Of a stretch of 64,000 nucleotides of DNA, positions 1,980 through 52,614 are shown piece after piece. The DNA is taken from positions 2,810,797 to 2,874,796 of the forward strand of contig OZ251535.1 of NCBI GenBank assembly GCA_965243165.1, read 5' to 3'. The translations under genes were made by a program, and so were the position numbers. This DNA is from Candidatus Spongiisociaceae bacterium. Its GTDB lineage: Bacteria > Actinomycetota > Acidimicrobiia > Spongiisociales > Spongiisociaceae. Each line of letters begins with the position of its first letter. Within the stretch, counting starts at the first letter, position 1. The notes below the pieces were generated by a model, which was given only the letters and a program-made list of their open reading frames with translations, did not search any database and was not told the DNA's origin.

Positions 1980-2783
1980 ATGAAAGCCCTCACCCCTGAA
2001 CAGATCGGCGCCTGGGAGCGGGACGGTTTCTTGGTGGTCCCCGGCTTCGTGGACGCCGGGGAGCTGGCCGCCGTCCAATCCATAATCTCCGGGCTGGCCG
2101 AGCAGGATCCCCCCCACCCGCAGGTCCACATCGACGTCGACCCGGCGCTGGCGGGCCGCACCGACCTGGCGGCCTCCCAGACCTTCCGGGCGCTGATCCA
2201 CGCCGCCCACGCCAGCCCGGAGCTGCGCGAGGTGTACACCCTGCGCCCCAAGACCCTGGACGTGGTGGAGGACCTGCTGGGGCCGGACGTGGTGTTCTAC
2301 ACCGACCAGACCTTCCTGAAGCCGCCCGGAGGCAGCCCCGCCCCGCCCCACCAGGACAACGCCTACTGGGAACCCTTCTGGTCGGGAAAGGGCAAGCTGT
2401 CGGTGTGGCTGGCCCTCGACGATTCGACCATCGAGCGGGGATGCACCAACTTCGTTCCGGGCAGCCACCGCTCGGTGCTGGAGCACGAGCGCGACTTCTC
2501 CAAGGACGCCCTGTTCGGAGGGGCGGTGGAGGGCCTGACCCCCGATAAGCTGGACTCCGTGCCGGTGGAGCTGAAGGCGGGCGACGCCTGCATCCACCAC
2601 GGAGAGATCATCCACTTCAGCGGCCCCAACGTATCCGACCAACCCCGGCGCGGCCACGTAGCCGTCTACTTCAGCGCCCGCTGCACCTACACCGACCAAG
2701 TGAGCGAGTTCTTCGCCGACGCCTTCATCCCCGCCCGCGGCTACACCTACCCCGGCTGCGTAGGCGGCGAACGCCTTTTCTAG
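1980..2783 (+). CDS. Phytanoyl-CoA dioxygenase (PhyH) family Fe/2-oxoglutarate oxygenase
   Basis: WERDGFLVVPG, HQD Fe-binding motif, VWLALDD, HFSGPN..PRR. Confidence 0.9.
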   Translation: MKALTPEQIGAWERDGFLVVPGFVDAGELAAVQSIISGLAEQDPPHPQVHIDVDPALAGRTDLAASQTFRALIHAAHASPELREVYTLRPKTLDVVEDLLGPDVVFYTDQTFLKPPGGSPAPPHQDNAYWEPFWSGKGKLSVWLALDDSTIERGCTNFVPGSHRSVLEHERDFSKDALFGGAVEGLTPDKLDSVPVELKAGDACIHHGEIIHFSGPNVSDQPRRGHVAVYFSARCTYTDQVSEFFADAFIPARGYTYPGCVGGERLF

Positions 2784-3082
2784 CTCTCACTATCCGCATT
2801 GTTCACATCAACCTTGGTCCGAATCTCCTTGATGAGATCATCTGACAGCGCCGCATTCTGCTGAATAAACAGTATGGATATATGTCGCTTAGATAAATTT
2901 TGTGTATAACGCATATCATCATCAGCGCTGATCAGCAAATCATAACCTGCCTGCTCGGCTTTATCCAGCAATTCGCCATTGGTCAACCTGCACCAACCTA
3001 AATAGCGGGCAGTGTGTACCGTATGATCTGAAAGATGATGCCGAATGGACTCATTGGCGCATTTATCAAGCAGTATCTTCAT
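2780..3082 (-). CDS. DUF5615/VapC45-like PIN-domain toxin
   Basis: MKILLD..., GW..LTNGELL..AE..GYDLLISAD...YTQNL; low GC; directly downstream of a DUF433 gene. Confidence 0.75.
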   Translation of the reverse strand: MKILLDKCANESIRHHLSDHTVHTARYLGWCRLTNGELLDKAEQAGYDLLISADDDMRYTQNLSKRHISILFIQQNAALSDDLIKEIRTKVDVNNADSES

Positions 3083-3086
3083 TTTC

Positions 3087-3539
3087 TTAAACCGCCACAA
3101 CAAGCTGTCGATCACACTTGAGCACCCTTTTTATTAACTCGTAGTCCAGACCATATTTTGCGGAAAATGCGTGGGGCACAACCCCACCTTTCATATGATT
3201 GAAGAGGATTTCAACCGGAAATTCGGTTCCCTTGAAGACCGGCCTTCCATCCTGGCCAAGTTCAACCGCCGGGCAACCGGTCAAATCAACGATATGAATA
3301 GGAGGGTCATTTTGCAGGTATTCAAGGGCAACCCTTATATTCTCACTGCCTACATGATAACTTATTTCGAAATCCTCTACGCTCTGTCCGTTTTCTGTCC
3401 AGCTGACCAGAATATCCACCGGCATCCTCATACCCAGGAAGGAAGGAGCGCCTGAAACCCTGTCCGGCGTGTACTCGATGACCGGGCAACTCCGCCAATC
3501 GATCATTTCCAGCACCATAGATCCGGATGCGGTCGTCAC
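3087..3539 (-). CDS. Tandem DUF433-domain protein (VapB45-like antitoxin)
   Basis: Two repeats: DWRSCPVIE..PDRVSGAPSFLGMRMPV and DLTGCPAVE..GRPVFKGTEFPV; start uncertain. Confidence 0.8.
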   Translation of the reverse strand: MTTASGSMVLEMIDWRSCPVIEYTPDRVSGAPSFLGMRMPVDILVSWTENGQSVEDFEISYHVGSENIRVALEYLQNDPPIHIVDLTGCPAVELGQDGRPVFKGTEFPVEILFNHMKGGVVPHAFSAKYGLDYELIKRVLKCDRQLVVAV

Positions 3540-3649
3540 TGTTCCTCCTCGGCTCGCCGCCCCAATTATATACGAGTCTAGGCAGAACAGCTCGCCGCCC
3601 CCAGACAGACCCCGCTTCCCCGCGGCTGCGGCAGGCCGGGCGGCGGGGT

Positions 3650-4457
3650 TCAGCCGATGAAATCTGCCAGCAGGTCGAGCTGGCGGCGCACCGACTCGAA
3701 GTTGGCGCCCCCTTTGGAACGGCGGCGGCGGACCGACTCGACCGGATCGGTCAAGGCCAGATCCTCAGACCGGAAACGCGGATCGGCCGCCTCCAGGTCG
3801 GCGGCGGACGCTTCACCCAGGTTCCTGCCCTCGGCGGCCAAGGCCGACAGCAGCCTTCCCACCGCATGGTGGGCCGCCCGGAAGGGAACCCCCCGCTCCA
3901 CCAGAGCTTCGGCCAGATCCAAGGCGGTGACCGACGGGTCGGGCGGCGGCGGGTGGAAGTCGGCCCCTGCGATCAGGGCGGTCATGGCTTCCAACGCCCC
4001 GGCCAAGGCGTCGTCAACGGCGAACACCGCCGCCTTGTCCTCCTGGAAGTCCCGGTTGTAGGTCAGGGGAAGCCCCTTCTGGAGGGCCATCAGCCCCGCA
4101 GGTAGAGGCGCAGACCGAGCGCGGCCTGGTCGTTGCGGGACCGCCCGGTGTGCAGCTTCCCGGCCGCCCCGCCCGCCAGCTCGCCGAGGCGCCTCTCCAC
4201 CGCCGAATGAACGTCCTCGTCCCCTTCGGCGAAACGGAACTCCCCCGCCTCGGCCTCTTCGAGGATCGTCCGCAACCCGCTACGCAGGGTTTCCGCTTCG
4301 CTGCGGTCCAGCAGGCCGGCCTCCGCCAGCATTGCGGCATGGGCAATCGACCCGGTGATGTCCTCGGCCAGCAGCCAGCGGTCACTGCGGTCAACGGTGA
4401 AACGCCAGAGCACCTCGGAAGGGTCCTCCGAGAACCGGCCCCCCACATCTTCGTCAT
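3650..4457 (-). pseudogene. argH: Internally deleted second copy of argininosuccinate lyase
   Basis: 3650-4095 matches the argH 3' part and 4096-4457 matches the 5' part; about 550 bp of the centre is missing and a C-run near 4440 is one base short. Confidence 0.9.
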
Positions 4458-4504
4458 GCCGCCGCCCCCGGCCTCCGGGCCGCACCCAGGGTCATCCATC
4501 CGCC

Positions 4505-4722
4505 TCCGCCGAGGGGTTCGCCCACCCCCGCGGCGTCGACTTCTTCTAATCCGACCAACACCTCGCACATGCGCGTAGGATTACGTTCCACAGGGGTCCT
4601 CCTCACTCGGGGATGAATTTCAAGCGTCCGATTATGGAGGACCCCACCCCCGATCCCGTGGATTCCCACCGTCCGTCAGAGGACCTGCCCGTCCTCTACT
4701 CCCCCCTCATCTCCGAAGAGCC
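4505..4722 (-). mobile_element. Truncated ISL3 (left end plus first transposase codons)
   Basis: Near-identical reverse complement of 21059-~21276, ending in the terminal IR ...CTCCGAAGAGCC at 4722. Confidence 0.9.
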
Positions 4723-4843
4723 GGTTTTCGGCGAGGAGGTCGTTGATGGTTGTGTAGAGTGCGATAGCGAGGGTGTTCAGATCCGGGTTCATTCCAGGCC
4801 TCCAAGGTCAGGGAGCTCAGCCGGGTTTCAGGAAGGAGAGTCT

Positions 4844-5860
4844 ATGAGAGCGTTAACTCGGCCGGCGGCCCGCGTTGTTGCTGTGCTTGTATTCGCGGCT
4901 TGCGGCGGTGGGGATCCTCTTCCTTCTCCGTCTTCGGGAGCGGATGCTACTGGTGCCTCAGCGGCAACACTGGCAGAAACAGAAACAGAAACAGAAGTAG
5001 CAGAAGCCTTGGCAATAGCCCCAGCAGAAGCAACAACAACCCTACCCCCGGCAACAACCGCCCCGGCGTCAACAACAACATCAACCGTGTGGATAGACCA
5101 GGAGGATGTAACAACAGACTCCTCACCTTCCCTAATGGAATTCACCGCCATCACCGCCGGAGACTCGTATTCGTGCGGAATACGCACAGACAACACCACA
5201 ACCTGCTGGGGCTGGAACGAATACGGTCAGGCAGACGCCCCACCCGGGCAATTCACCGCCATCACCGCCGGAGACTCGCATTCGTGCGGGATACGCACAG
5301 ACAACACCACAACCTGCTGGGGCAACAACGACTGGGGGCGGGCAAACGCGCCGACCGGGCAATTCACCGCCGTAACCGCCGGATGGGGGCATTCGTGCGG
5401 GATACGCACAGACAACACCATAACCTGCTGGGGCCGGCCCCACTGGGGTAACGACTGGGGTCAGGCAGACGCGCCAGCCGGGCAATTCACCGCCGTAACC
5501 GTCGGAGACTCGTATTCGTGCGGGATACGCACAGACAACACCACAACCTGCTGGGGCTGGAACGAATACGGTCAGGCAGACGCGCCAGCCGGGCAATTCA
5601 CCGCCGTAACCGCCGGATGGGGGCATTCGTGCGGGATACGCACAGACAACACTATAACCTGCTGGGGCAACAACAGCTGGGGGCGGGCAGACGCGCCAGC
5701 CGGGCAATTCACCGCCGTAACCGCCGGAGGATATCATTCGTGCGGGATGCGCACAGACAACACCACAACCTGCTGGGGCACCAACAGCTGGGGCGGGCAG
5801 ACGCCCCGGGGTTCGCAGGCAGTTCCGAACCCGATGAACAATAAGCAGTCCCGAACCTGA
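4844..5860 (+). CDS. RCC1-repeat lipoprotein
   Basis: RBS GGAAGGAG, lipobox VFAAC, Thr/Ala linker, six ~37-aa repeats FTAxTAGxxxSCGIRTDNTTTCWG; last repeat probably frameshifted near 5790 (true end likely 5844). Confidence 0.85.
   Translation: MRALTRPAARVVAVLVFAACGGGDPLPSPSSGADATGASAATLAETETETEVAEALAIAPAEATTTLPPATTAPASTTTSTVWIDQEDVTTDSSPSLMEFTAITAGDSYSCGIRTDNTTTCWGWNEYGQADAPPGQFTAITAGDSHSCGIRTDNTTTCWGNNDWGRANAPTGQFTAVTAGWGHSCGIRTDNTITCWGRPHWGNDWGQADAPAGQFTAVTVGDSYSCGIRTDNTTTCWGWNEYGQADAPAGQFTAVTAGWGHSCGIRTDNTITCWGNNSWGRADAPAGQFTAVTAGGYHSCGMRTDNTTTCWGTNSWGGQTPRGSQAVPNPMNNKQSRT
5140..5806 (+). repeat. Six near-identical ~111-bp tandem coding repeats
   Basis: Recurrent AATTCACCGCC...TTCGTGCGGGATACGCACAGACAACACC...ACCTGCTGGGGC. 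Confidence 0.95.
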
Positions 5861-5914
5861 TGCACAAATCGAGCTGTTGGGAACCTTTGTTTCGGTGCTG
5901 GTATCAGTGAACAC

Positions 5915-6457
5915 CTAGGCCGTTGCTGAACAGCAACGCAGCACAGAACACCTGCTGGGAACTCGACAGATGAACCGGCGCCCTATGCTACGGACGGCGG
6001 CTCTCCCAAGACCCCGGAGACGTCGAAATCGTCTACCCGCCCAAACCGGGCTGAGCACTCCCTCGGAACAACCCCGACAATACACGAGAACAGAACGGAC
6101 GGATGAGATAAGCACCCGCATCCTTCTGACCTGATGAACCAGCCCGACGGCAGGCATGAACACCGGGATCAACCGGCTCTTCGAGAACGCCGCCGCCTGA
6201 CAAGCTCCCTTGGGCAAGAACGATCCCCGTGCCCCTGCACACCTCCGCAACCCCACACAAGCCCCTCCTCAACACCAGGCAACCCAACCACAAGCCGCTC
6301 CCGGCGGTAACTTCCCAAACCACGGCTCCACCAAAAACACGAGGCAAGCGGAAGCCGATAAAACCACCCACCACTCCTAACGGCCCAACCACCCCCACCC
6401 ATCCCCTCAATCGGCTCTACACACCCCAACCAGTACACCATGAAGAATCGGGGCTAG
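5915..6457. other. A/C-skewed non-coding stretch, possible decayed IS remnant
   Basis: Strong A/C strand skew, no credible ORF, bounded by CTAG at both ends; no terminal IR seen. Confidence 0.3.
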
Positions 6458-21058: not shown

Positions 21059-22498
21059 GGCTCTTCGGAAATGAGGGGGGAGTAGAGGACGGGCAGGTCC
21101 TCTGACGGACGGTGGGAATCCACGGGATCGGGGGTGGGGTCCTCCATAATCGGACGCTTGAAAGGCATCCCCGAGTGAGGAGGACCCCTGTGGAACGCAA
21201 TCCTACGCGCATGTGCGAGGTGTTGGTCGGATTAGAAGAAGTCGACGTCGCGGGGGTGGGTGAACCCCTCGGCGGGGGCGTCGAGGTCGAGGTCCGCTGC
21301 CGGGCGCCCCGCCCGCGGTGCCCCGGCTGCGGAGGCCCTCTGTGGTCGAAAGGCACCCGAGTGGTGGAGCTGGTTGATCTTCCCTCGTTCGGGCGGCCCG
21401 CCCGTCTGAGCTGGCGGAAACACCGCTGGGAGTGCCCCAACCCGGAGTGCGGGGTGGGGTCGTTCACTGAACAGAACCCCGAGATCGCCCCTGAGCGGGC
21501 GTTGCTGACCACCCGGGCGGCTCGGTGGGCGACCAAGCAAGTCGGCCAGGCCGGCCGCGCTGTTGAGGAAGTGGCCAGAGAGTTGGGTTGTGACTGGCAT
21601 ACCGTCAACAAGGAGGTAACCCGTTGGGGCGCTGCTTTGTTGGAAGCCGACCATGATCGGGTAGGCCGGGTGGAGGCTCTGGGCCTGGACGAGACCCTGT
21701 TCCTGCGGCGGGGCCGCCGTCTGGGAAGGGTCTGGGCGACTTCGGTGGTAGACGTCGGAGGAGGGCAGCTGCTAGACGTTGTCCCAGGCAGAGACGCCCG
21801 TTCAGCCGCGGGGTGGCTGCAGGAACAACCAAAAGAATGGTTGGAACAGATCCGCTGGGCGGTGTTGGACCTCTCCAGCCCGTATCGGGCGGCCTACAAC
21901 CAAGTGCTGCCCCACGCCCGCCAAATCGCCGATCCGTTCCATGTGGTGCGGTTGGCCAACGACCGCCTCGACCAGGTGCGCCGCCGCACCCAACAGGAAA
22001 CCCTCGGACACCGGGGACGGAGAGGAGATCCCTTGTATCAGATCCGGCGGCTGCTCACCCTTGCTTCGGAACGGCTCGACACCAGCGGCGAAGCCCGCCT
22101 GCGGGGCCTCCTCGACGCCGGAGACCCCCACGGCGAAGTCCGGACGGCCTGGCACGCCAAGGAAACAGTCCGCAGTGTCTACGACATCGACGAACCCGAC
22201 GTTGCCGACCGGTACTGCCGGCAGCTCGCTTCCGACCTTCAGCACGAGTCCTGCCCGCCGGAGGTCAACCAGCTCGGCCGGACCCTCGCCCGCTGGCATA
22301 CCCAGATCACCAACTGGCATCACGCCCGTTACACCAACGCAGCCACCGAAGCCGTCAACAATCTCATCAAACGAATCAAACGCGTCGGGTTCGGGTTCCG
22401 GAACTTCGCCAACTACCGGATCCGGGCTCTGCTCTACGCCGGGAAGCCCAACTGGAAGCTGCTCCCCACCCTCACTCCCCCCTGAAATCCGAAGAGCC
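21059..22498 (+). mobile_element. Complete ISL3-family insertion sequence
   Basis: Terminal IRs GGCTCTTCGGA...AGGGGGGAGT; 8-bp target duplication CCTTTAAC at 21051-21058 and 22499-22506. Confidence 0.97.
21190..22485 (+). CDS. ISL3 family transposase
   Basis: CPGCG/CPNPEC zinc finger, LGLDET, DPFHVV, TNAATEAVNNLIKRIKRVGFGFRNF.NYR. Confidence 0.95.
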   Translation: MERNPTRMCEVLVGLEEVDVAGVGEPLGGGVEVEVRCRAPRPRCPGCGGPLWSKGTRVVELVDLPSFGRPARLSWRKHRWECPNPECGVGSFTEQNPEIAPERALLTTRAARWATKQVGQAGRAVEEVARELGCDWHTVNKEVTRWGAALLEADHDRVGRVEALGLDETLFLRRGRRLGRVWATSVVDVGGGQLLDVVPGRDARSAAGWLQEQPKEWLEQIRWAVLDLSSPYRAAYNQVLPHARQIADPFHVVRLANDRLDQVRRRTQQETLGHRGRRGDPLYQIRRLLTLASERLDTSGEARLRGLLDAGDPHGEVRTAWHAKETVRSVYDIDEPDVADRYCRQLASDLQHESCPPEVNQLGRTLARWHTQITNWHHARYTNAATEAVNNLIKRIKRVGFGFRNFANYRIRALLYAGKPNWKLLPTLTPP

Positions 22499-23496
22499 CC
22501 TTTAACAGCTCAACCTGCAGGCGAATTTCCCGATCTATATCTAAGCATTTTTCTGCCGGAAGCTCGTTGACCCTGATCGCCCTGCCTGTGATAAACTGGG
22601 TTATCAGCGCGGAAGTGGCTTCATTGATGATAGTACGTTGTCATCGGCTTCCGTCGTAAGGACCATCAAGAAGAGCCAACGGTCCTAGGACAGATTGCAA
22701 CATCCCGCTTATCTCTTCCCTCCCTAGAAATTGGAACTGTTCTTTCTGCACCACTATTTCGATAAATCTCTCATGCTCAGCCCCGCTCATCAAAAGATGA
22801 ATCGGAACCAAACCAACGCGGTAGAAATCTTCCAAGTCATGCACTGCGTATGTGACATCGTCAGCCCAATCCATCAGCTCTGCTTCCAAAGTGAGTTTGT
22901 CTTCTGTGCTGCCCCGCCTTACCCATTCAAACCGATCTTCATCAACACCATAGACACCCCATTTGTCATTTTTGTATCAGATTTGGATCGTGTCCACGGG
23001 TATTTGAGGATGGCGTTAAGAGTTGCCCTGGTCAAATTCAGACCAGCATCATCGCCGCTGGCAGGATCATTGTCCGTGTGAGACGCCAGTCGGGTAATGA
23101 TCCGGAAAGACTGGGCATTGCCTTCGAAGCCCTCCCCTTGTTGTTCGTCAACAGCTTGGCATATCACTTTCTCTCCGTCGTGTCCGAACGGAGGATGCCC
23201 TAGATCGTGGGCAAGGCCCGCCGTCTCTACGACATCAGGATCAAGACCATCCTGGATATCAACCCGTTCAGGAGATTCCTCCAGCAGACGCTCGGCGAGG
23301 CGGCGGCCCACCTGCGCGACCTTCAGAGAGTGGGTCAGCCGATTGTGGAAGTAGTCTCCCTCGCTGGCCGATGCCACCTGAGTAACCCCGCTGAGACGCC
23401 GGAACTCCGGAGCGTAGAGAACCCTGTCTCTGTCGCGTTGAAACGGGTGGCGAAGATCTTCATTGACCTGATCTCGGAATCGCTCTGCCCTGCCGT

Positions 23497-23724
23497 TCAC
23501 TGAGCAACGAGGCGGATGCCGTCGAGGGCGTACCGCAATTTGCCTGCCCGAACCAGACGAGAGACAGCCATGCCGATGTCCAGGTCCGTGAGACCAGACC
23601 CGCTCATGTGGTCGACCACCTCCAGCACATGAACGAACGGCCGATTTCCAGCATCGCTGCGCTTCTCGATGACCTCCAGCACCTTCTTCATCCGCACACG
23701 GCTGGGCGTCTGCGTGTCCACCAT
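23497..23724 (-). CDS. Small 75-aa protein, possible winged-helix, translationally coupled to dgt
   Basis: Strong RBS AAAGGAGG; stop overlaps the dgt GTG (GTGA); AVSRLVRAGKL resembles a wHTH. Confidence 0.6.
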   Translation of the reverse strand: MVDTQTPSRVRMKKVLEVIEKRSDAGNRPFVHVLEVVDHMSGSGLTDLDIGMAVSRLVRAGKLRYALDGIRLVAQ

Positions 23725-23816
23725 CGTGCACCTCCTTTCAATGCACCAACCATATCAAGGAAGTACGACACGCCGAGGCAATCCTGGCAGTTCGCGCGCC
23801 GATGGGGCGAGGCAGG

Positions 23817-25079
23817 TCAGGACTGCCAGAGGGCCTCGATGGGGCGGACGCTGATCCGGTCCCCGGCGGGCAGGGCGCGGGATCCCGTGTAGAGGACGAT
23901 TCCCTGGGCGAACCGGTTCCCCAGCAGATCGCGCAGCTTGGCCAGGTTCGACCAATCCCTGGGATGCACGGCGCCGGCCGCCTTTACTTCGACCGCTACT
24001 GCCCGGCCGTCCGGCAGCTCGATGATCAGATCGACCTCCAAGCCGTTGCGGTCGCGGTAGTGGAACAGACCGACCGACCCCAGGGACGGGTCCAGCCAGT
24101 CCGCCTGCTTCATGATCTCGTTGACCGCGAACGTCTCCATCAACGGACCCCGCCCGGGGTGGCCGGGCCGGGAGAGAGCGTCCGGCGGCGCTTTCATCAG
24201 AGCGGCGGCCAAGCCGGTGTCGGTCACGTATATCTTCGGACGCCGCTTGGCGCGGGAGGTGAGGTTGCGCGACCAGGGCTGCAGCTCGTGCACCAGATGA
24301 ACCATCTGCAGATGCGCCAGATAATCCGCAGTGGTCAGGACGCTGCCCAACCCGACATCGCCGTGAACGTTGGAAACCACCAGCTCGCCGGCGGTGCGGG
24401 CCGCCAAGGCCTGAAGCAGCCGGGGCAGCTGATCGGCGCGGCGCGCCCCGGTCAGGGCAACGACATCCCGCAGTGTCACCGTATTCACATAAGAACCGAA
24501 CCACGCGTTGCGGGCGCCCGGCGGGAGGCCCTGCACCTCTGGGAAACCGCCCGCGCAGATCCGATGCAGGCAACTGCCGAGGGACAGATCGGAATCCCGC
24601 CCCGGCGGCGGAGAATCTGCATCCCGCGCCAGGCCCTCCAGAAAAGCTTCGCGGCGGCCCTCTATCTCGCCCTGCGAAAAAGGGAGCAGCCGGAAGAGCA
24701 CCGCCCGGCCGGCCAGTGATTCGCTGATCGTGGGAACGGTCAGAAAGTCCGCGGAGCCGATGAGGAGAAACTGCCCGGGCGTCCGGCTGCGGTCGACCGC
24801 CTGCTTGACCGCCCGCACCAGAGGCTCCCCCGCCCGCTGGACTTCATCGATGACCGCAGGCGCCGAAAGGCTCTGCAGCAGGCCCATCGGGTCCTCGACC
24901 GCAGCCGAGCGCAACTGATGGTCGTCCAGCGAAACATACGACCCTGCACCCGCTGCCTGGATAGCGGCGGTGGTTTTGCCCGCCTGCCTGGGCCCATGCA
25001 GGATCACCACCCGGAAAGACCGCAGCGCCTCCCGCAGCACCGGGACGATACGGCGTTCTACCAGGGGCTTTTCTCCCAA
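23817..25079 (-). CDS. AAA ATPase with DUF4143 domain
   Basis: GPRQAGKTT, IDEVQR, ESLAGR, PKIYVTDTGL, HYRDRNGLEVDLI...AVEVK. Confidence 0.9.
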   Translation of the reverse strand: MGEKPLVERRIVPVLREALRSFRVVILHGPRQAGKTTAAIQAAGAGSYVSLDDHQLRSAAVEDPMGLLQSLSAPAVIDEVQRAGEPLVRAVKQAVDRSRTPGQFLLIGSADFLTVPTISESLAGRAVLFRLLPFSQGEIEGRREAFLEGLARDADSPPPGRDSDLSLGSCLHRICAGGFPEVQGLPPGARNAWFGSYVNTVTLRDVVALTGARRADQLPRLLQALAARTAGELVVSNVHGDVGLGSVLTTADYLAHLQMVHLVHELQPWSRNLTSRAKRRPKIYVTDTGLAAALMKAPPDALSRPGHPGRGPLMETFAVNEIMKQADWLDPSLGSVGLFHYRDRNGLEVDLIIELPDGRAVAVEVKAAGAVHPRDWSNLAKLRDLLGNRFAQGIVLYTGSRALPAGDRISVRPIEALWQS

Positions 25080-25247
25080 TGGCGCCTCCTCCTTCTACGC
25101 TTGAATCCAAGCTGCTGACATTTTCACCGTAAGTCTACTATATTTTTCGCTTAGACTCTAATGATGGTTTCGCTGCTCAACATTGGACTGCCCCCGCCTG
25201 CCCCGTCAGAATTGCGGCCCCGGCGCGGCGGCGGTTACAATGGCGGT

Positions 25248-25319
25248 ATGACACGTCCAGCGTTGTTCGCCTATTACGTCTTTACCGGGCCCGATGCCCG
25301 GGCCGGGCGCGGCGTGTAA
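25248..25319 (+). CDS. Phe/Tyr-rich leader peptide MTRPALFAYYVFTGPDARAGRGV
   Basis: ATG just downstream of -10 box TACAAT (25236-25241); F-A-Y-Y-V-F cluster; precedes a terminator and an aromatic-pathway gene. Confidence 0.8.
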   Translation: MTRPALFAYYVFTGPDARAGRGV

Positions 25320-25344
25320 CGGACTCTCGTCGAAAAAACCCAGG

Positions 25345-25374
25345 CCCGGAGCGCCCGCTCCGGGTTTTTCTTTT
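25345..25374 (+). terminator. Attenuator terminator hairpin
   Basis: CCCGGAGC-GCCC-GCTCCGGG followed by TTTTTCTTTT; CCGGGCC in the leader can pair with GGCCCGG as antiterminator. Confidence 0.85.
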
Positions 25375-25406
25375 ACCGGAGGGGCGGGGCCGCCAGGACA
25401 AGGAGC

Positions 25407-26483
25407 ATGGAGATGGAACGAAAAGCGGTGCGCAACGGCTCGGAGGCAAACACCCTGGTGGAGGTGGGCGCCGCCCGGTTCGGACGCGACCCCTTCCCGG
25501 CCATCGCCGGACCCAGGGCGGTCGAGTCGGAAGAGCAGATCATGGAGGTGGCGGAGGCGGTGGCCGAGGCGGGCGCCGCCATGCTGCGGGGCGGGGTGTT
25601 CGAGTCGAGCAGCTCCCCTTACGCCTTCTCCGGCCTGGGAGAACCGGGCCTGGAACTCCTGCAGCAGGCCGGGCGGGAGGTCGGCCTGCCTACCCTGACC
25701 AAGGCGCTCGAACCCAAAGACGTGGACATGGTGGCCGGCCGCGTCGACATGATCCATGTGGACCCGGGTTCGATGCAGAACTTCGAGCTGCTGCGGGTGA
25801 TAGGGAGCACCGGCAAACCGGTGCTGCTGGAGCGGGGGGGGTCGGCCACCATCGACGAATGGCTGTGGGCCGCCGAGTACATCTTCGCCGAGGGCAACGA
25901 CCAGATCGTCCTGTGCGAGGGCGGCATCCGCACCTTCGCCGCTCCGGCCGCCCTCGACCTCGGCGCCATCCCGGTCCTCAAGGAGAAGAGCCACCTCCCG
26001 GTGATCGCGGCCCCTTCGGGGGCGGCCGGCTCCGCCGCCCGTATCCAGCCGCTGGCGCTGGCCGCCCAAGGGGTCGGCGCCGACGGCATCATGATCGAGG
26101 TGCACCCCGACCCCGGAACGGCCCGCACCAGCGTGTCGCATCAGCTCACCATCCCCGATTTCGCCCGGTTGATGGATGCGCTCGGAGTCAACCGAATCCG
26201 CATGAAGATCGACCTCGTCAACCGCGACCTGGTGCGCCTGCTGGCCAACCGCCGCCGGATGGTCATGGAGGTGGGCCGGATCAAGGCGGAACGGGGGATA
26301 CCGATCCACGTTCCCGAAAGGGAGGAGGAGCTGCTGGCCGTGGTGCGGGAAGAGGCGGCCCTGGCCGGCCTGGACCCCGAACAGGTGGAAAGGGTGTTCG
26401 TACTGATCCTCGAGCATTCCCGTGAAGCCCAACGCCGCAGCATCCAGGCAGGCGTCTGGACCAAGGATCACAACCAGCCCTGA
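25407..26483 (+). CDS. DAHP-synthase-like (type I-beta, degenerate active site) domain fused to C-terminal AroQ chorismate mutase
   Basis: Scaffold motifs IAGP, RGG, MQNFELL, EWLWAAEY, EVHPDP; CM domain RMKID...LLANR...VGRIK...ERE...SREAQ. Confidence 0.85.
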   Translation: MEMERKAVRNGSEANTLVEVGAARFGRDPFPAIAGPRAVESEEQIMEVAEAVAEAGAAMLRGGVFESSSSPYAFSGLGEPGLELLQQAGREVGLPTLTKALEPKDVDMVAGRVDMIHVDPGSMQNFELLRVIGSTGKPVLLERGGSATIDEWLWAAEYIFAEGNDQIVLCEGGIRTFAAPAALDLGAIPVLKEKSHLPVIAAPSGAAGSAARIQPLALAAQGVGADGIMIEVHPDPGTARTSVSHQLTIPDFARLMDALGVNRIRMKIDLVNRDLVRLLANRRRMVMEVGRIKAERGIPIHVPEREEELLAVVREEAALAGLDPEQVERVFVLILEHSREAQRRSIQAGVWTKDHNQP

Positions 26484-26538: not shown

Positions 26539-27516
26539 TCAGACGGTGGCTTGCCGGGAGACCACGAGGATGAACATCACGAAGGAGGCCAGGAGGACCA
26601 GGCCTTGGATCCGGCCGAGGCGGGGGCGGGCAACGGCGAGCACCCCCACCAGGAGGCCTATCACCATCATCATCACGTGTTCCCAAATCCGGCGCTCGCC
26701 TATCGCCCCGGCCCCCAGCACCCCGGCCGCCCCCACCACCAAGAAGGAGTTGAACATGTTGGAGCCCAACAGGTTGCCGATCACGAGCTCGTTGTTCTTG
26801 CGGCGGGCGGCCGCTCCGGCCGTTGCCAGCTCCGGCAGGCTGGTGCCCAAGGCGAAGATGGTGGCGCCCACGAACCCGCCGGCCAGGCCGTAGACCTCGG
26901 CGACCCGGCCTCCGCCGTCCACCATCAACCAGGCGCCGAACACGATGCCCACCAGCGACATGGCCACCCTGAGCATCTCCCGGCCCGCCCGGTGGTCCGC
27001 CTCGCCGGGGCCGTCCTCCAAGTCGGCGCCGGACGCCCCCGCCCCGGCCAGTCCGGCGGCCATGTCCCGCCGGGACCACACCATCAGCAGCACCGCCGCC
27101 GCCGCCATCCCCCCCACCAGCGCCAGCCCTTCCACCCGGGTGAGTGCGTCGTCCCAGGCCGCCGCGAACACCGCCGCCATGGCGGTGAGGGTGAGCAGCC
27201 CCTCCCGGCGGAGGATGCGCATCTGGCCGACCACCGGGGAGATCACCGCGCTCACCCCCAGCACCAGCGACAGGTTGGCGGCGTTGGACCCCACCACGTT
27301 CCCGATCGACGAGGCCAGCTCCCCCCGGGCGGCGGCCAAGGCGCTGACCACCAGCTCAGGGGCGGAGGTGCCGAAACCGATCACCAGCGCCCCCACCAGC
27401 ACCGGCGACACCCCCCAGATGCGGGCCAGCCGGGCGGCCGCCAAGACGAACGGATCGGCCGCAATCCACAGCAGGGCGATCCCCGCCGCGATCAGGACGA
27501 TCCCCAACCAGAGCAT
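26539..27516 (-). CDS. Calcium/sodium antiporter (CaCA, YrbG-like)
   Basis: GTSAPE..GNVVGSN and GTSLPE..GNLLGSN alpha repeats. Confidence 0.92.
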   Translation of the reverse strand: MLWLGIVLIAAGIALLWIAADPFVLAAARLARIWGVSPVLVGALVIGFGTSAPELVVSALAAARGELASSIGNVVGSNAANLSLVLGVSAVISPVVGQMRILRREGLLTLTAMAAVFAAAWDDALTRVEGLALVGGMAAAAVLLMVWSRRDMAAGLAGAGASGADLEDGPGEADHRAGREMLRVAMSLVGIVFGAWLMVDGGGRVAEVYGLAGGFVGATIFALGTSLPELATAGAAARRKNNELVIGNLLGSNMFNSFLVVGAAGVLGAGAIGERRIWEHVMMMVIGLLVGVLAVARPRLGRIQGLVLLASFVMFILVVSRQATV

Positions 27517-27566: not shown

Positions 27567-28343
27567 TCAGGCGTTCTTCTCGTCCCGCCAGGCGATCCAG
27601 TCCTCGAGTCCGGGCATGCCGAAGTCGGGGCCCTCCACCCCCGACAACGTGATCTGGGCGGCGCCGTCCCTGAGCAGCCGGTCGGCCTTGTCCAAGTCGC
27701 CCAGACCGACGCCGACCGCCCGCTCGATCTCCGACGGATCCCGCCCGGCCGCCCGGCACCAATCGTCCAGAATGCGGTTCTTGCGCACCAGGGCGTCGAC
27801 GCTGAAGCTGTGCCAGATGTCGGCGTAACGGCCGGCGATCCGCATGGTGTGCTTCTCGCCCTGCCCTCCGATGAGGACGGGTATGCGGCGCACGGGGGGC
27901 GGGTTGAGCCGCTTCAGCCGCCGCTCGATCTTGTAGAGGCCGGTGTCGAGATCCCGCAGGCGCCCCCCGAAAGTCCCGAACGGGTATTCGTACTCGGAGT
28001 AGTCCTTCTCGGCCCATCCACCCCCCAACCCCAGGATCAGGCGCCCCTCGCTGATGTGGTCCACGGTCCGCGCCATGTCGGCCAGGAGATGCGGATTGCG
28101 GTAGGAGCAACAGGTAACCAGCGCCCCGATCTCCACCCGCTCGGTCACCTCCGCCCACGAGGCCAGCATCGTCCAGCATTCGAAGTGTTTCCCGTCCGAA
28201 TCGCCCCACAGCGGATAGAAGTGGTCCCAGTTGTAGATGATGTCCACCCCTTTTTCTTCAGCGCGGACAGCGGCGGCGCGTATGCCCCTGTAATCGCCGT
28301 GTTGGGGGGCGATCTGGACGGCGATTCGGACCGGGCGGTTCAT
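27567..28343 (-). CDS. LLM-class F420-dependent oxidoreductase
   Basis: VQIAPQH, NWDHFYPL, YRNPHLLADMARTVDHIS.GRLILGLG.GW. Confidence 0.9.
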   Translation of the reverse strand: MNRPVRIAVQIAPQHGDYRGIRAAAVRAEEKGVDIIYNWDHFYPLWGDSDGKHFECWTMLASWAEVTERVEIGALVTCCSYRNPHLLADMARTVDHISEGRLILGLGGGWAEKDYSEYEYPFGTFGGRLRDLDTGLYKIERRLKRLNPPPVRRIPVLIGGQGEKHTMRIAGRYADIWHSFSVDALVRKNRILDDWCRAAGRDPSEIERAVGVGLGDLDKADRLLRDGAAQITLSGVEGPDFGMPGLEDWIAWRDEKNA

Positions 28344-28410
28344 TGCATCTCCTCTCGAGCTTCGGTTTCTCTCGGCGGTTTCAAGATACCCCAAAGAGCC
28401 GCCCGCGGGT

Positions 28411-49079: not shown

Positions 49080-51152
49080 TCAGGCCAGGGTCTCCCTCAC
49101 CGCCGACATGACCCGCTCCGGGGTGATGACGGCGTGATGCTCCACCCCGAACTGCGGCCAGGGGGCGTCGAAGCCGGCCACCCTGACGACGGGGGCCTCC
49201 AAGGCGTAGAGGGCTTCCTCGGCCACAGTCGCCGCCACTTCGGCGGCCATCCCGGCGGTGCGGGGCGGTTCCTGCACCAGCACCAGCCGACCCGTCCTGT
49301 TCACCGACTCGATCACCGCTTCCCGGTCCCAGGGCTTCAGGGTGCGCAGGTCGATCACCTCGCAGTCCACCCCCTCGGCGGCCAGGCCGTCCGCCGCCGC
49401 CAACGCCGTCCGCACCATCCCCCCGTAGGTGACCACCGTTGCGTCCCGCCCCCTCCGGCGGAAACGCGCCCGGCCGATCGGCAGGGTGTAGTAGTCGGCG
49501 GGGACGTCCTCCCGCCCCGCCCGGTACAGGACCTTCGGCTCGAGGAAAAGCACCGGATCGGGGCTCTCCACCGCCGCGGCCAGCAGCCCCTTGGCGTCGG
49601 TCGGGGTGGAAGGGATCACCACCGTCAGGCCGGGGGTGTGGACGAAGTAGGCCTCCGGGCTGTCGCCGTGGAACTCGTGGGGGGCGATGCCGCCGCCGTT
49701 CGGCCAGCGCACCACCAGCGGCAGGGTGACGTTGCTGCGGGTGCGGAACCGGAACCTCGCCATGTGGCTCACGATCTGGTCGAAAGCGGGGTAGACGAAG
49801 CCGTCGAACTGGATCTCGGCCACCGGCTTCGCCCCCCCGACCGCCAGCCCCACCGCCGTTCCGGCGATGCCGGTCTCGCACAAGGGGGTGTCGATGACCC
49901 GCTCGGCGCCGAACTTCTCCAGCAGGCCTTCGGTGATGCGGAACACCCCGCCGGTCATCCCCACGTCCTCGCCCAGCACCACCGCCTCCGGGTGACGATC
50001 CATCACCTCGAACAGGGCGGCGTTGATCGCCTCGGCCATGGTCCAATTCCGGACGGGGCCGTCCGGCAGGCGGTCGCGTCCGATCTCCCACAGCTCATCC
50101 GCCTCCACCGTCGAGGGCCGGGCGCCCTCCCGCCGCAGCGCCGTCCGGTACTGGCCGGCCAAGTCCTTGGGAATCCGCTCGTAGACGTGGCGGACGGCCT
50201 CCTCGCGGGGCGGCTCAGGACGGGCTTCTATCTCCGCCAGGGCCTCGCCGAACGCCGCCGACTCCATCTCCACCTGCTCGTCGATGTCGTCCGACCACAG
50301 CCCCCGGCCTTCCAGAAAACGCCTGAACCGCTCGATCGGGTCCTTGGCGCGCCAGGCCTCCACCTCTTCCTCCGTCCGGTAGAGGGTCGGGTCGTCGGCG
50401 GTGGCGTGAGGGCCGTAGCGGTAGGTGACCGCTTCGATCAGGGTGGGGCCGCCTCCGCCGCGCGCCCGCTCCACCGCTTCCCGGGTTGCGGCGTACACCG
50501 CCAGCGCATCCATCCCGTCCACCTGCACACCGGGCATCCCGTAGGCGGCCGCCTTGCCGGCCAGAGAAGCCGCCGCCGTCTGGCGGCCGACCGGCATGGA
50601 GATGGCCCAGCCGTTGTTGGAACACATGAACACGGTGGGGGCCTTCCACACGCCGGCGAAGTTCATGGCCGAGTGGAAGTCGCTCTCGGAGGTGGCGCCG
50701 TCCCCGAAGTAGGCCACGGTGATCAGGTTCCGGCCCGCCAGCCGGGCGGCGTAGGCGTGGCCCACCGCATGGGGGAGCTGGGTGGCGATCGGGATGGTGT
50801 GGATGTTCATCCGGTACCGGTGGACGTCCCAGTCTCGGTTGGGCAGCCCCCGGTAGTAGGAGAGCATCACCGCCGGGGGCATGCCTCGAGCCAGCTGGAC
50901 GGCGTGCTCCCGGTAGCTGGGGTAGATCCAGTCTTCCGGCCCGACCGCGTAGGCGGAGCCGATCTGGGCGGCTTCCTGGCCGGCGCCGGGCGGGAAGGTG
51001 CCGAGGCGGCCCTGCCGCTGCAGGCTCAGGGCGCGGCGGTCGAAACGGCGGCCCAGCGCCATCAGCCGGTACATCTCGATCAGGTCTTTGTCGTCCAGGC
51101 CGTCCGGCACCTCCCCCGCGAGGCGGCCGGCGGCGTCCAGGATCTGCAGCAC
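49080..51152 (-). CDS. Fused E1 alpha-beta 2-oxoacid (pyruvate/branched-chain) dehydrogenase
   Basis: LQRQGRLG, FGDGATSE..NNGWAIS, then GEDVG..GGVFR, IDLRTL in one ORF. Confidence 0.92.
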   Translation of the reverse strand: MLQILDAAGRLAGEVPDGLDDKDLIEMYRLMALGRRFDRRALSLQRQGRLGTFPPGAGQEAAQIGSAYAVGPEDWIYPSYREHAVQLARGMPPAVMLSYYRGLPNRDWDVHRYRMNIHTIPIATQLPHAVGHAYAARLAGRNLITVAYFGDGATSESDFHSAMNFAGVWKAPTVFMCSNNGWAISMPVGRQTAAASLAGKAAAYGMPGVQVDGMDALAVYAATREAVERARGGGGPTLIEAVTYRYGPHATADDPTLYRTEEEVEAWRAKDPIERFRRFLEGRGLWSDDIDEQVEMESAAFGEALAEIEARPEPPREEAVRHVYERIPKDLAGQYRTALRREGARPSTVEADELWEIGRDRLPDGPVRNWTMAEAINAALFEVMDRHPEAVVLGEDVGMTGGVFRITEGLLEKFGAERVIDTPLCETGIAGTAVGLAVGGAKPVAEIQFDGFVYPAFDQIVSHMARFRFRTRSNVTLPLVVRWPNGGGIAPHEFHGDSPEAYFVHTPGLTVVIPSTPTDAKGLLAAAVESPDPVLFLEPKVLYRAGREDVPADYYTLPIGRARFRRRGRDATVVTYGGMVRTALAAADGLAAEGVDCEVIDLRTLKPWDREAVIESVNRTGRLVLVQEPPRTAGMAAEVAATVAEEALYALEAPVVRVAGFDAPWPQFGVEHHAVITPERVMSAVRETLA

Positions 51153-51280
51153 TTGAGGTTTCCTTCCTCGCCCTCTTCAATATCGTCAGAACGGCCGAGA
51201 GCAACAAGCCCCGGCTCGACAACCAGAGATACTACCACCTCCCCGGCAGGCGTAAGCCGAACAAACTATATCCATGATGC

Positions 51281-52423: not shown

Positions 52424-52614
52424 TATCTTCGCCTCGCTCACACGTCGTCGTTGCAACCCGGCCATCCACCGATCTGGGCAACCATCTCCATCCAATCTTG
52501 GACAGATACATCATACCCCAACTCTAAAGCCGATGCGGGCGCTGTCGGACTCGACCAAGCCCGCGCCTGGGGCGGGAGCGAAACCGGCGGCCGCCCCTCT
52601 GGTAATCTGAGGGG

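Follow-up and report, generated by a model that had tools for sequence, protein, structure and literature searches.

The gene at 25407..26483 on the forward strand of the window (the whole 64,000-nucleotide stretch of DNA that was analysed) is an intact ORF for a 358 aa protein, P0001, in which a catalytically degenerate DAHP-synthase barrel is fused to a chorismate mutase (CM) domain whose catalytic residues are intact. We favor, with a probability of about 0.65, the reading that the protein is a monofunctional CM which retains its dead barrel as a structural or kinetic module. Tentatively, the barrel might instead be a repurposed regulatory pseudoenzyme, that is, a mimic of a CM-activating state, a metabolite sensor or a dock, and not a passive scaffold. 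A role as scaffold or allosteric module for the CM is suggested by selection on the barrel, by the conserved junction between the domains, by the rarity of stand-alone derivatives and by published work on intact homologues.

Domain organization of the fusion

The protein displays a type I-beta DAHP-synthase-like TIM barrel at residues 26–254 (25482..26168, forward strand), recognized as DAHP_synth_1 (PF00793; E 3.3e-48, 164.4 bits with a cut-off of 25.5), and an AroQ chorismate mutase domain at residues 264–342 (26196..26432, forward strand), recognized as CM_2 (PF01817; E 7.3e-19, 68.2 bits with a cut-off of 27). The barrel matches the DAHP synthase 1vs1 at E 5e-70 in phmmer. The AlphaFold2 (AF2) model of the whole protein has a mean pLDDT of 86.3, with most barrel blocks at 90–98; in Foldseek the barrel superimposes on 1vs1 and 1zco with a target-normalized TM of 0.91 and an rmsd of 2.3–2.6 Å. 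Both by sequence and by fold the barrel is thus a member of the type I-beta DAHP-synthase family, and in the model its fold is retained despite the catalytic losses described below. A Shine-Dalgarno-like AAGGAG, read from the sequence, lies at 25400..25405 (forward strand), one base 5' of the ATG. A 421 aa antisense ORF at 25206..26471 on the reverse strand was rejected as a high-GC shadow, homology support being on the side of the forward-strand gene.

The barrel has lost its canonical active-site residues

The preliminary description had claimed that the type I-beta catalytic motifs are replaced one by one. Residue-by-residue HMMER alignment of the barrel to the solved DAHP synthases 1vs1, 4grs, 1zco and 5j6f bears this out at every motif listed, and the loss of catalytic residues relative to characterized I-beta enzymes is confirmed: GPC becomes GPR (Arg37), FKPRTS becomes FESSSS (Glu66, Ser67–70), QIGARN becomes HVDPGS (His117 to Ser122), LKRG becomes LERG (Glu142), CERG becomes CEGG (Gly172), DPSH becomes APSG (Ala202, Gly205) and the late Ser-Asp becomes Thr241-Ser242. 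Glu231 of the EVH motif is retained, as are His233 and Arg143. The metal of DAHP synthases is bound by Cys, His, Glu and Asp, roles established in the P. furiosus and T. maritima structures. We take the P. furiosus ligands Cys31, His201, Glu227 and Asp238 to be the equivalents of Arg37, Gly205, Glu231 and Ser242 in the alignment, with which the 1zco numbering agrees; three of the four ligands are lost and the Glu alone is left. The basic positions that bind PEP (KPRT Lys, IGARN Arg, LKRG Lys and CERG Arg), conserved at 100% in 120 active-type barrels, hold Glu66, Gly121, Glu142 and Gly172, and the erythrose-4-phosphate-binding Pro-Arg-Thr of the KPRT loop is replaced by Ser67, Ser68 and Ser69. 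Besides, the beta6-alpha6 loop is shortened by a two-residue deletion in the clade of the query. In the Porphyromonas model this same loop is part of the interface.

We scored active sites by the number of canonical residues at 17 near-invariant positions. The fusion barrel is canonical at two of them only (Arg143 and Glu231), the other 15 being replaced, while of the 98 barrels in the database that have no CM domain, 96 retain at least 14 and 57 retain all 17. The degeneracy of the fusion barrel is far beyond chance, and DAHP-synthase activity has presumably been lost with these residues. The alternative of a barrel with remaining enzymatic function, be it as a DAHP synthase working with unconventional residues or as the bearer of a new activity, appears highly improbable to us. 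Glu231, His233 and Arg143 are kept, the new His/Tyr117, Asp119, Glu66 and Glu142 line the old pocket and the barrel is under strong purifying selection, all of which a live enzyme would explain; but three of the four metal ligands, the scored basic PEP contacts and the erythrose-4-phosphate contacts are replaced as described, and several old pocket positions vary freely among close relatives, unlike a catalytic site. The protein also scores 294.9 bits, above the cut-off of 279, against NF009239, the NCBIfam equivalog for the bifunctional enzyme (and 266.3 bits against TIGR01361, slightly below its cut-off of 267.75), but this match reflects overall similarity only. Since the barrel center is degenerate, the fusion should not be filed as bifunctional even though it stands above the NCBIfam cut-off. 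A residual PEP-utilizing enzyme of the KDO8P synthase or NeuB-like kind was considered and rejected: the PEP contacts among the 17 scored positions (KPRT Lys, IGARN Arg, CERG Arg) are all gone, and the retained Arg143 is not a scored PEP contact. In the literature searched we found no description of a pseudo-DAHP synthase.

The degenerate barrel derives from intact fusions by graded steps

The Acidimicrobiia fusions are monophyletic (153 tips, support 0.997), and the degenerate ones form a clade of 149 tips (support 0.924), or of 148 tips (0.958) once L032 is set apart. L031, L033 and P0123, which are basal and intact with 16 of 17 canonical positions, are placed outside the degenerate clade. 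Along the tree the scores of the query lineage fall from 5 to 4–5 and then to 2–3 of 17, and living fusions provide graded intermediates at 16, 12, 10 to 6, 5 and 2–3. The most degenerate lineage, which is that of the query, is sponge-symbiont-associated. Among the sequencing runs matched to the sequence there were no RNA runs, and the matching DNA runs include sponge metagenome labels. The tree shows that the fusion descends from intact proteins made of a barrel and a C-terminal CM, and pseudo-DAHP-synthase-CM fusions appear to be the usual form of CM across much of the class Acidimicrobiia. One intact fusion, P0134, is 366 aa long. Dead DAHP-synthase barrels have also arisen independently in CM-prephenate dehydratase-barrel fusions.

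This descent from intact fusions of the same order leads us to regard the protein as a decayed bifunctional enzyme and not as an "inverted" version of the Bacillus design, which is how its architecture had been presented in the preliminary description; otherwise the interpretation given there is supported, its three computational checks having all come out in its favor. In Bacillus-type AroA it is the barrel that acts as the enzyme, the CM domain serving mainly as a prephenate sensor. The AroA proteins of Bacillus, Geobacillus and Listeria (5j6f, 3nvt, 3tfc) are built from the same two domain families, and the barrels align at E 2e-68 and 3.5e-67, but their CM is N-terminal while here it is C-terminal, and the present fusion has a dead barrel and the sole CM found in the genome.

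The closer comparator is the type with a C-terminal CM represented by PgiDAH7PS-CM of Porphyromonas gingivalis and PniDAH7PS of Prevotella nigrescens, in which, as here, an unadorned type I-beta barrel is followed by an AroQ CM in one chain. The lengths are similar (358 aa here, 366 aa there), and basal members of the query's own clade, with 16 of 17 positions kept, show the same domain order. The fusion departs from this type in that not both of its catalytic centers are competent: with 15 of 17 barrel positions replaced, only the CM half is predicted to work. It also differs in its host, an Acidimicrobiia lineage, and in its junction, which is modeled as a near-continuous helix where the Porphyromonas enzyme is described with an 11-residue flexible linker (PMC12202928).

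The barrel is under purifying selection

We calculated dN/dS (NG86) over the 114 of 210 pairs, drawn from 21 related genomes, in which dS was below 1.5 in all three partitions. The values, which are approximate since dS lies near 1, are 0.141 for the pseudo-barrel, 0.208 for the CM domain and 0.079 for the barrel of the canonical DAHP synthase that these genomes encode; in the more distant degenerate clade they are 0.26 for the barrel and 0.35 for the CM (317 of 741 pairs). Thus the dead barrel is under purifying selection and is not decaying, and the idea that orthologues share the loss while being selected has held up.

These data bear directly on the possibility that the barrel is a relic drifting neutrally toward deletion, with the CM alone being of importance. 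The tree shows a progressive loss of catalytic residues, and CM-only shortened copies occur in two genomes (G018 and G020), as such a relic would predict. Against this, the barrel has a lower dN/dS than even the CM domain, the dead clade shows at least 95% conservation in 53% of barrel columns, all 30 of 30 fusion orthologues are free of frameshifts and stops, and the degenerate state is kept at 55 of 55 species-level Acidimicrobiia loci. The shortened CM copies, for their part, co-exist with a full-length gene, and one of them is without two of the CM catalytic residues. Conservation and dN/dS contradict a pseudogene or neutral relic, to which we give next to no credence.

Variation within the former pocket is uneven. 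Across the dead clade, variation is higher at the 17 positions of the former active site than in the remaining barrel (mean entropy 0.83 versus 0.58), which fits a role of the barrel as scaffold. Concomitantly, 63 distinct sequences of the dead clade show no or almost no variation at Arg37, Lys99, Asp119, Pro120 and Ala202; a scaffold does not explain the invariant Arg37, Lys99, Asp119 and Pro120, which might just as well be the sign of a new ligand site. A ligand-sensing allosteric barrel, whose remodeled pocket would bind for instance Phe, Tyr, prephenate or chorismate and so tune the CM, would account for these five residues, and a communication path has been reported in the family, occupancy of the barrel active site activating the CM in PniDAH7PS (PMC8408635). 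We nevertheless hold it to be rather unlikely, as the remaining former pocket positions (Ser69, His117, Gly172, Ser242) drift, with top-residue frequencies of 0.29–0.59, and the former KPRT loop (61–80) is the least confident region of the model and the sole low-confidence part of the barrel, with pLDDT below 50 at 68–70. As a form of the regulatory pseudoenzyme, the repurposed barrel could sense a pathway metabolite in this manner, or its pocket, plugged by the invariant Arg37, Lys99 and Asp119, could imitate the substrate-bound, CM-activating state of intact fusions.

The chorismate mutase domain is intact and probably joined almost rigidly to the barrel

The AroQ residues that had been described as kept (R, R, K, RE, S and Q) are all present: Arg265, Arg282, Lys293, Arg305, Glu306 and Gln342 are invariant among 45 diverse fusion proteins, and Ser338 is at least 90% conserved. 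We take them to be the equivalents of Arg11', Arg28, Lys39, Arg51, Glu52, Ser84 and Gln88 of the E. coli CM. By residue spacing, the Asp48-equivalent position is Val302, a position that is not universally conserved in the AroQ family. The AF2 model contains the three helices of an AroQ fold (261–296, 303–319 and 324–347), and the CM domain is predicted to be active.

At the junction, Leu255, Leu259, Gly260 and Arg265 are invariant and Met256 and Arg263 at least 90% conserved (45 sequences), and in the AF2 model the last barrel helix (249–258) leads almost straight into the first CM helix (261–296). Stand-alone relatives of this CM domain (53–172 aa) are rare: two were found in a database of 5.8 billion proteins, versus 3434 near-full-length matches. 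The CM-side contacts of the Porphyromonas model, Glu269, Glu270, Glu287 and Arg291, map to Leu259, Gly260, Arg277 and Asn281 when the mapping is anchored on the catalytic Arg and a gap-free helix is assumed. These contacts are not conserved in the fusion, and the published Porphyromonas interface is therefore not simply transferable.

A separate canonical DAHP synthase is encoded in the genome

The source genome (3.19 Mb, 94.3% complete by marker genes) contains two PF00793 matches, the fusion and a separate 343 aa DAHP_snth_FXD/DAHP_synth_1 protein, so that another DAHP synthase, whose presence had been suggested as a check, is indeed found. This enzyme, whose regulatory domain is ferredoxin-like, has canonical residues at 14 of 17 positions: Lys-Pro-Arg-Thr is kept and three of four metal ligands are unchanged, the fourth changing from Glu to Asp, while the other two changed positions are Gln to Arg and Ala to Thr. 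Its gene adjoins a prephenate dehydrogenase gene. Prephenate dehydratase and chorismate synthase are both present in the genome. The fusion itself gives the single CM_2 match, and there are no matches to CM_1 or, for type II DAHP synthase, to PF01474; at 94.3% completeness, "only CM" and "no type II enzyme" mean "not found".

Among same-family genomes, 21 of 24 carry the fusion, and it is the sole CM_2 match in each of them except G018 and G020, which hold the shortened copies. Two other genomes of the family (G004 and G011) have an unrelated stand-alone CM and no fusion, which means that the fusion arrangement is not obligatory for the lineage. These two CMs were rejected as barrel-deletion derivatives, being 35–40% identical to the CM of the fusion and having no leader.

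The presence of the paralogue raises the possibility that the barrel is a docking subunit, which co-assembles with the ferredoxin-like-domain DAHP synthase. In that case the barrel could tie the CM to the genuine enzyme and couple control at the pathway's entry and branch points, in the manner of the M. tuberculosis CM-DAHP synthase complex or of trypanosomatid "prozymes". The two barrels are paralogous (49% identity) and co-occur in all 21 fusion-bearing genomes of the family; type I-beta barrels are reported to oligomerize via their active-site loops (PMC12202928), and the M. tuberculosis CM to require DAHP synthase for high activity (PMC7762937). However, the residues of the Porphyromonas barrel-barrel interface (Pro-Arg-Thr of KPRT, Arg of IGARN) are those replaced here, and about 0.9 Mb lies between the two genes. 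A complex prediction with the canonical DAHP synthase and pseudo-barrel residues 1–260 gave no support, scoring 0.08 with the mark at 0.32, a result that counts neither for nor against docking. We consider such docking quite unlikely. The M. tuberculosis complex resembles the fusion in that the CM relies for its performance on being associated with a DAHP-synthase barrel (PMC7762937), but it is non-covalent and involves an active type II synthase, while here the link is covalent and the type I-beta barrel inactive judging by its residues.

The gene is preceded by a predicted Phe/Tyr leader-peptide attenuator

Upstream of the fusion gene, on the same strand, a promoter-like site (–35 CTGACA, 18-nt spacer, –10 TATATT) lies at 25115..25144, with 10 of 12 consensus matches; the consensus scan found this one site versus 0.2 expected in shuffles. 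It is followed by a leader-peptide ORF of 23 codons plus TAA (25248..25319, forward strand) that carries Phe-Ala-Tyr-Tyr-Val-Phe at codons 7–12 (25266–25283). A CCGGG/CCCGG repeat segment at 25284..25309 (forward strand), near-invariant in a 23-sequence leader alignment, can form pairs internally or with the terminator's 5' arm and is a candidate antiterminator; in the minimum free energy (MFE) fold the competing pairing joins about 25296–25309 with about 25338–25352. The terminator scan identified an intrinsic-terminator-like hairpin at 25342..25377 (forward strand), with 11 pairs, a 4-nt loop and then a T-run. Its stem, CCCGGAGC...GCTCCGGG, is invariant in the leader alignment and occurs once in the 3.19-Mb genome. 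The leader thus combines a regulatory-codon ORF, a terminator and a competing antiterminator pairing.

The leader peptide and terminator of the Phe/Tyr attenuator mentioned in the preliminary description are real and conserved. Short ORFs with at least three Phe or Tyr in seven residues precede 78 of 85 orthologous loci, versus a mean of 2.8 in shuffled upstream regions and 1 on the reverse strand; in the best leaders Phe is counted 203 times, Tyr 139 times and Trp 21 times. At 20 of 30 orthologous loci there is a hairpin of –12 kcal/mol or lower together with TTTT. The single-sequence fold of the leader has a z-score of –0.94, so that its energy alone is not significant, little covariation is seen since the stems are invariant, and an E-value scan of 24900–25600 gave no Rfam match. 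The predicted attenuator fits an enzyme committed to the Phe/Tyr branch. It shares with attenuators of the pheL-pheA type the short regulatory-codon ORF, the alternative hairpins, the terminator with its T-run and the location 5' of a CM-bearing gene, and differs from them in that Phe and Tyr codons are mixed and the host belongs to an actinobacterial class. The available text of a 2005 survey reports no conserved RNA elements 5' of Phe or Tyr genes in Actinobacteria (PMC1262725); relative to that text, a Phe/Tyr leader-peptide attenuator would be added to the phylum.

A model for the origin of the fusion

Our preferred reading, that of a CM with a barrel kept as a structural or kinetic module, can be laid out as follows. 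The starting point would be a bifunctional fusion in which the CM stood C-terminal to the DAHP synthase, and the separate DAHP synthase regulated by its ferredoxin-like domain may have made catalysis by the fused barrel redundant. The latter would then have lost its erythrose-4-phosphate and PEP contacts first, and subsequently three of its four metal ligands. Selection would have held the fold, likely because the near-rigidly joined CM needs the barrel for folding, dimer geometry or substrate affinity, while the new residues Arg37, Lys99, Asp119, Pro120 and Ala202 probably plug or brace the old pocket. Expression of the CM would be set by the Phe/Tyr-codon leader-peptide attenuator.

The dependence of the CM on the barrel is proposed by analogy with measurements on the intact Porphyromonas homologue. 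In PgiDAH7PS-CM, removal of the barrel is reported to raise the Km of the CM for chorismate from 19 to 207 μM (PMC12202928), and in PniDAH7PS the CM is described as allosterically activated by the barrel (PMC8408635); a CM that depends on its barrel is thus a feature of the characterized enzymes. Selection that maintains a dead homologue next to an active function has also been described for pseudoenzyme partners such as the trypanosomatid "prozymes", but here the dead domain would support a different, fused enzyme and not its own active paralogue. In the literature searched we found no DAHP-synthase example of such partners.

Significance of the fusion

Judged on its residues, the fusion illustrates how nature can convert an enzyme domain into a module without catalysis. 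DAHP synthase-CM fusions serve as a model for fusion-born allostery and mutual dependence, and the present family amounts to a natural experiment in which one fusion partner died and the covalent link was kept over long evolutionary time. The C-terminal-CM fusion, termed specific to periodontal pathogens in the available text of a 2025 paper (PMC12202928), is widespread in Acidimicrobiia and thus extends beyond the oral Bacteroidota of that work. As they stand above the NF009239 cut-off, these fusions would receive the name bifunctional DAHP synthase/CM, as one database entry already has; such naming makes DAHP synthase seem to be present in more copies than it is when the metabolism of Acidimicrobiia, sponge symbionts included, is reconstructed. 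Finally, the graded series from intact to dead barrels lets one ask whether a fused enzyme becomes "addicted" to the fold of its partner.

Gene structure and state of the two active sites

The fusion gene (25407–26483, forward strand) is, as the preliminary description had claimed, an intact open reading frame. It encodes 358 residues, and a Shine-Dalgarno-like AAGGAG read from the sequence ends one base before its ATG. Pfam places a DAHP_synth_1 barrel at residues 26–254 (E 3.3e-48), followed at residues 264–342 by CM_2, a chorismate mutase (CM) domain of type II (E 7.3e-19). The gene is monocistronic, with neighbours divergent from or convergent with it, and the three neighbours, an AAA_14/DUF4143 ATPase (23817–25079), a Na/Ca-exchanger-family membrane protein (26539–27516) and a luciferase-like oxidoreductase (27567–28394), all on the reverse strand, have no relation to aromatic metabolism. 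The long antisense open reading frame at 25206–26471 most likely only shadows the fusion gene, as happens in high-GC DNA. The G+C content of the window is about 69%; stretches at 2001–6000, 22001–24000 and 50001–54000 are lower (0.59–0.64, against the usual 0.69–0.71) and may be acquired or non-coding regions.

HMMER alignments of the protein to the solved I-beta enzymes 1vs1, 4grs, 1zco and 5j6f (E 5e-70 to 2e-68) bore out each of the motif losses previously described: GPC to GPR (Arg37), FKPRTS to FESSSS (Glu66, Ser67–70), QIGARN to HVDPGS (His117 to Ser122), LKRG to LERG (Glu142), CERG to CEGG (Gly172), DPSH to APSG (Ala202, Gly205) and the late Ser-Asp to Thr-Ser (Thr241, Ser242), while Glu231 of the EVH motif is retained. 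Residues Arg37, Gly205, Glu231 and Ser242 align with 1zco chain positions 31, 201, 227 and 238, which in the Pyrococcus furiosus enzyme are taken to be the four metal ligands. Seventeen active-site positions were defined and scored across all gathered sequences. The query keeps the canonical residue at 2 of them (Arg143 and Glu231); by comparison, 57 of the 98 database barrels that lack a CM domain keep all 17, 26 keep 16, 10 keep 15, three keep 14 and two keep five or fewer. On computational grounds, the barrel is almost certainly not a DAHP synthase. Residual or new catalysis is unlikely, as the contacts to metal and PEP have been lost and drift is seen at several positions of the pocket. 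The CM residues said to be kept are indeed kept: when 45 diverse fusion proteins are aligned, Arg265, Arg282, Lys293, Arg305, Glu306 and Gln342 show no variation and conservation at Ser338 is at least 90%. These residues match the active-site list of the E. coli CM.

The fusion supplies the only chorismate mutase found

The genome, a single 3.19-Mb contig 94.3% complete by marker genes, has two PF00793 matches, the fusion gene and a 343-aa protein, so that another DAHP synthase is present. This paralogue combines a ferredoxin-like DAHP-synthase regulatory domain with a barrel canonical at 14/17 positions; the three changes are Gln to Arg, Ala to Thr and, conservatively, metal Glu to Asp. Its gene is immediately followed by one for an ACT-domain prephenate dehydrogenase, which it overlaps head to tail (G000:C1:1928402–1932118), and the two genes look like one operon. 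No type II DAHP synthase, AroH-type CM or second AroQ CM was found in this 94.3% complete genome. Since prephenate dehydratase, prephenate dehydrogenase and chorismate synthase are present, the Phe/Tyr branch needs a CM, and the fusion gene carries the only one found; the fusion protein is very probably the CM of the organism.

Of 41 genomes, comprising that of the window and 40 relatives (the unpublished G028 included), 35 have a match to the fusion protein. Within the family the fusion occurs in 21 of 24 genomes, always together with the canonical paralogue, for which the barrel may alternatively be a docking subunit. The CM of the fusion is the sole CM_2 match in every fusion-bearing genome except G018 and G020, both of one genus, in which an extra shortened copy (last barrel helix plus CM domain, 62–67% identical to the query CM) stands beside the full-length gene. 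The G018 copy lies at about 2299–2652 of locus L056; the G020 copy, at about 1861–2247 of L057 on the reverse strand, has an open frame and lacks equivalents of Arg283 and Ser338. Two genomes of the family, G004 (locus L054) and G011 (L055), have no fusion and carry an unrelated stand-alone AroQ CM, 35–40% identical and without a Phe/Tyr leader.

A Phe/Tyr leader precedes degenerate and intact fusions

Upstream of the fusion gene, on the same strand, we found a promoter-like site (25115–25144), a 23-codon leader open reading frame (25248–25319) whose codons 7–12 read Phe-Ala-Tyr-Tyr-Val-Phe, a conserved CCGGG/CCCGG repeat block, and a terminator hairpin with a T-run (25342–25377). The whole set (25115–25405) is conserved across the order before the fusion gene and unique in the window's genome. 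A Phe/Tyr-rich leader was present at 78 of 85 orthologous loci (up to 16 of the 85 may duplicate the same genomes), compared with a mean of 2.8 for shuffled upstream regions and one on the reverse strand. The terminator stem is invariant in 23 aligned leaders and occurs once in the window's genome, and a strong hairpin followed by TTTT was present at 20/30 loci. Rfam gave no match for the leader region, and its single-sequence fold energy is unremarkable. The Phe/Tyr attenuator previously proposed is upheld, and its predicted layout agrees with attenuation of the classical kind, governed by charged Phe/Tyr tRNA, sensible for a branch-point CM. A 2005 survey reports no conserved RNA elements before Phe or Tyr genes in Actinobacteria (PMC1262725). 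Intact fusions likewise carry the leader; the attenuator is older than the barrel decay and is alone no proof of a dead barrel.

The dead barrel keeps its fold under selection

An AlphaFold2 model built on a 45-fusion alignment has a mean pLDDT of 86.3, with barrel blocks mostly at 90–98 and only the former KPRT loop (residues 61–80) weak, and Foldseek matched it to DAHP synthases with a target-normalised TM of 0.91 and an rmsd of 2.3–2.6 Å. Fusion orthologues extracted from 30 related genomes are open in all 30. The canonical paralogue was sampled from the window's own genome and 20 relatives in its family, and pairwise NG86 dN/dS was calculated for those pairs whose dS stayed under 1.5 in all partitions (114 of 210). 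Median values, approximate because dS is near 1, were 0.141 for the pseudo-barrel, 0.208 for the CM domain and 0.079 for the genuine DAHP-synthase barrel; the dead barrel is thus more constrained than the CM and about half as constrained as a working DAHP synthase. More distant degenerate relatives gave 0.26 for the barrel and 0.35 for the CM (317/741 pairs). The expectation that orthologues share the loss under purifying selection therefore holds.

At the 17 former active-site positions, mean entropy among 63 distinct dead-clade sequences is 0.83, against 0.58 in the rest of the barrel; in 120 active-type barrels the values are 0.10 and 1.61. Constraint has thus shifted from the pocket to the whole fold, as a scaffold predicts. 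Neutral decay of the barrel is contradicted both by this conservation outside the old active site and by a dN/dS below that of the CM. New residues are invariant or nearly so at five positions in the 63 sequences (Arg37, Lys99, Asp119, Pro120 and Ala202). We infer that the new charges there brace or plug the emptied pocket; given the same invariant residues, the pocket may instead, though less probably, sense a ligand.

Coupling of the barrel to the chorismate mutase

Across the 45 fusions the junction does not vary at Leu255, Leu259, Gly260 and Arg265 and varies little at Met256 and Arg263, and in the AlphaFold2 model the last barrel helix (249–258) continues almost straight as CM helix 1 (261–296). 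Stand-alone descendants of the query CM are very rare: a word-based search of a 5.8-billion-protein database, which can miss distant forms, returned two proteins of 53–172 aa against 3434 near-full-length matches. Precedent comes from two papers. Splitting the domains of the Porphyromonas enzyme raised the CM Km for chorismate from 19 to 207 µM with kcat unchanged, reduced DAHP-synthase efficiency and left the isolated barrel monomeric; in its AlphaFold3 model the barrel-barrel interface includes the KPRT loop and the Arg of IGARN, and the barrel-CM interface includes helix alpha6 and the beta6-alpha6 loop (PMC12202928). The CM of the Prevotella enzyme is allosterically activated by DAHP-synthase substrates (PMC8408635). 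Dependence of the CM on the barrel is thus a reasonable cause of barrel retention. However, by positional mapping the query does not conserve the residues that make the contacts on the CM side in the Porphyromonas model, and HMMER alignments show a two-residue deletion in the beta6-alpha6 loop of the query clade, so that the interface must differ in detail.

We favour the reading, with a probability of roughly 0.55–0.65, that the barrel has been retained chiefly because it supports the CM structurally or kinetically. Within the limits of computation, the observation in the preliminary description is confirmed, and its interpretation of the barrel as a scaffold or allosteric module is supported by selection, the fixed junction and the Porphyromonas and Prevotella precedent.

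Origin and distribution of the degenerate fusions

Each of the 120 best database matches (56–99% identity) is a barrel-CM fusion. The canonical KPRT and IGARN motifs never occur together in them, and 46 of the 120 have the same Cys to Arg change as the query. A maximum-likelihood tree of 314 barrels groups the fusions in a single clade (153 tips, support 0.997). Two loci (L031, L033) and protein P0123 keep 16/17 positions and fall outside the degenerate clade, although their grouping is poorly supported (0.448), as is the placement of locus L030 (12/17; 0.436). The degenerate clade below L030 has 149 tips (support 0.924), or 148 at 0.958 without locus L032 (5/17), and its large subclades keep 6–10/17. 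Along the query lineage, protein P0047 (5/17) still has the metal His, a group of 13 tips (4–5/17) still has the KPRT Lys, and the final 55 tips keep 2–3/17. The tree shows at least four separate losses of the metal Cys (to Thr, Ala, Ser or Arg). Genomes with intact fusions hold other DAHP synthases as well. In the simplest history, the bifunctional fusion would have become redundant for DAHP synthesis, substrate contacts would have been lost first and the metal site later, differently in different lineages, with the query lineage having gone furthest.

A scan of species-representative genomes gave 55 loci titled Acidimicrobiia, Actinomycetota or bacteria, all 55 with a degenerate barrel (2–10/17) and CM; the 16 closest (68–90% identity, 2–3/17) include Candidatus Spongiisociaceae and Ca. 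Spongiisocius records. The fusion stretch is also present in DNA runs labelled sponge metagenome. A fusion in the Asgard archaeon Promethearchaeum syntrophicum MK-D1 (L114; 37% identity to the query) is intact at 17/17, which makes the C-terminal-CM architecture much wider than oral Bacteroidota. CM-prephenate dehydratase-(ACT)-DAHP-synthase-barrel proteins also exist, one (P0127) with an intact barrel; five representatives (P0149, P0151, P0157, P0182 and P0223; 667–688 aa) have degenerate barrels (6–10/17), which suggests independent origins of dead DAHP-synthase barrels in CM-bearing fusions of other kinds. P0179 (305 aa) is a barrel-only protein at 4/17.

The top NCBIfam models for the query are I-beta DAHP synthases, and it scores 294.9 bits against the 'bifunctional DAHP synthase/chorismate mutase' equivalog NF009239 (cut-off 279), so that automatic annotation would label it bifunctional; one database source already calls P0082, a degenerate relative, 'bifunctional'. 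Passing this cut-off with a dead barrel is a systematic annotation error for the clade. No paper on a catalytically dead DAHP-synthase domain was found in the literature searched. The abstract of a 2025 Porphyromonas paper describes the barrel-CM fusion as specific to periodontal pathogens (PMC12202928); the architecture is widespread in Acidimicrobiia and mostly degenerate there. Neither the fold nor the fusion nor the idea of a pseudoenzyme is new; what does not seem to have been described before is a CM that retains a dead DAHP-synthase barrel, together with living intermediates in series.
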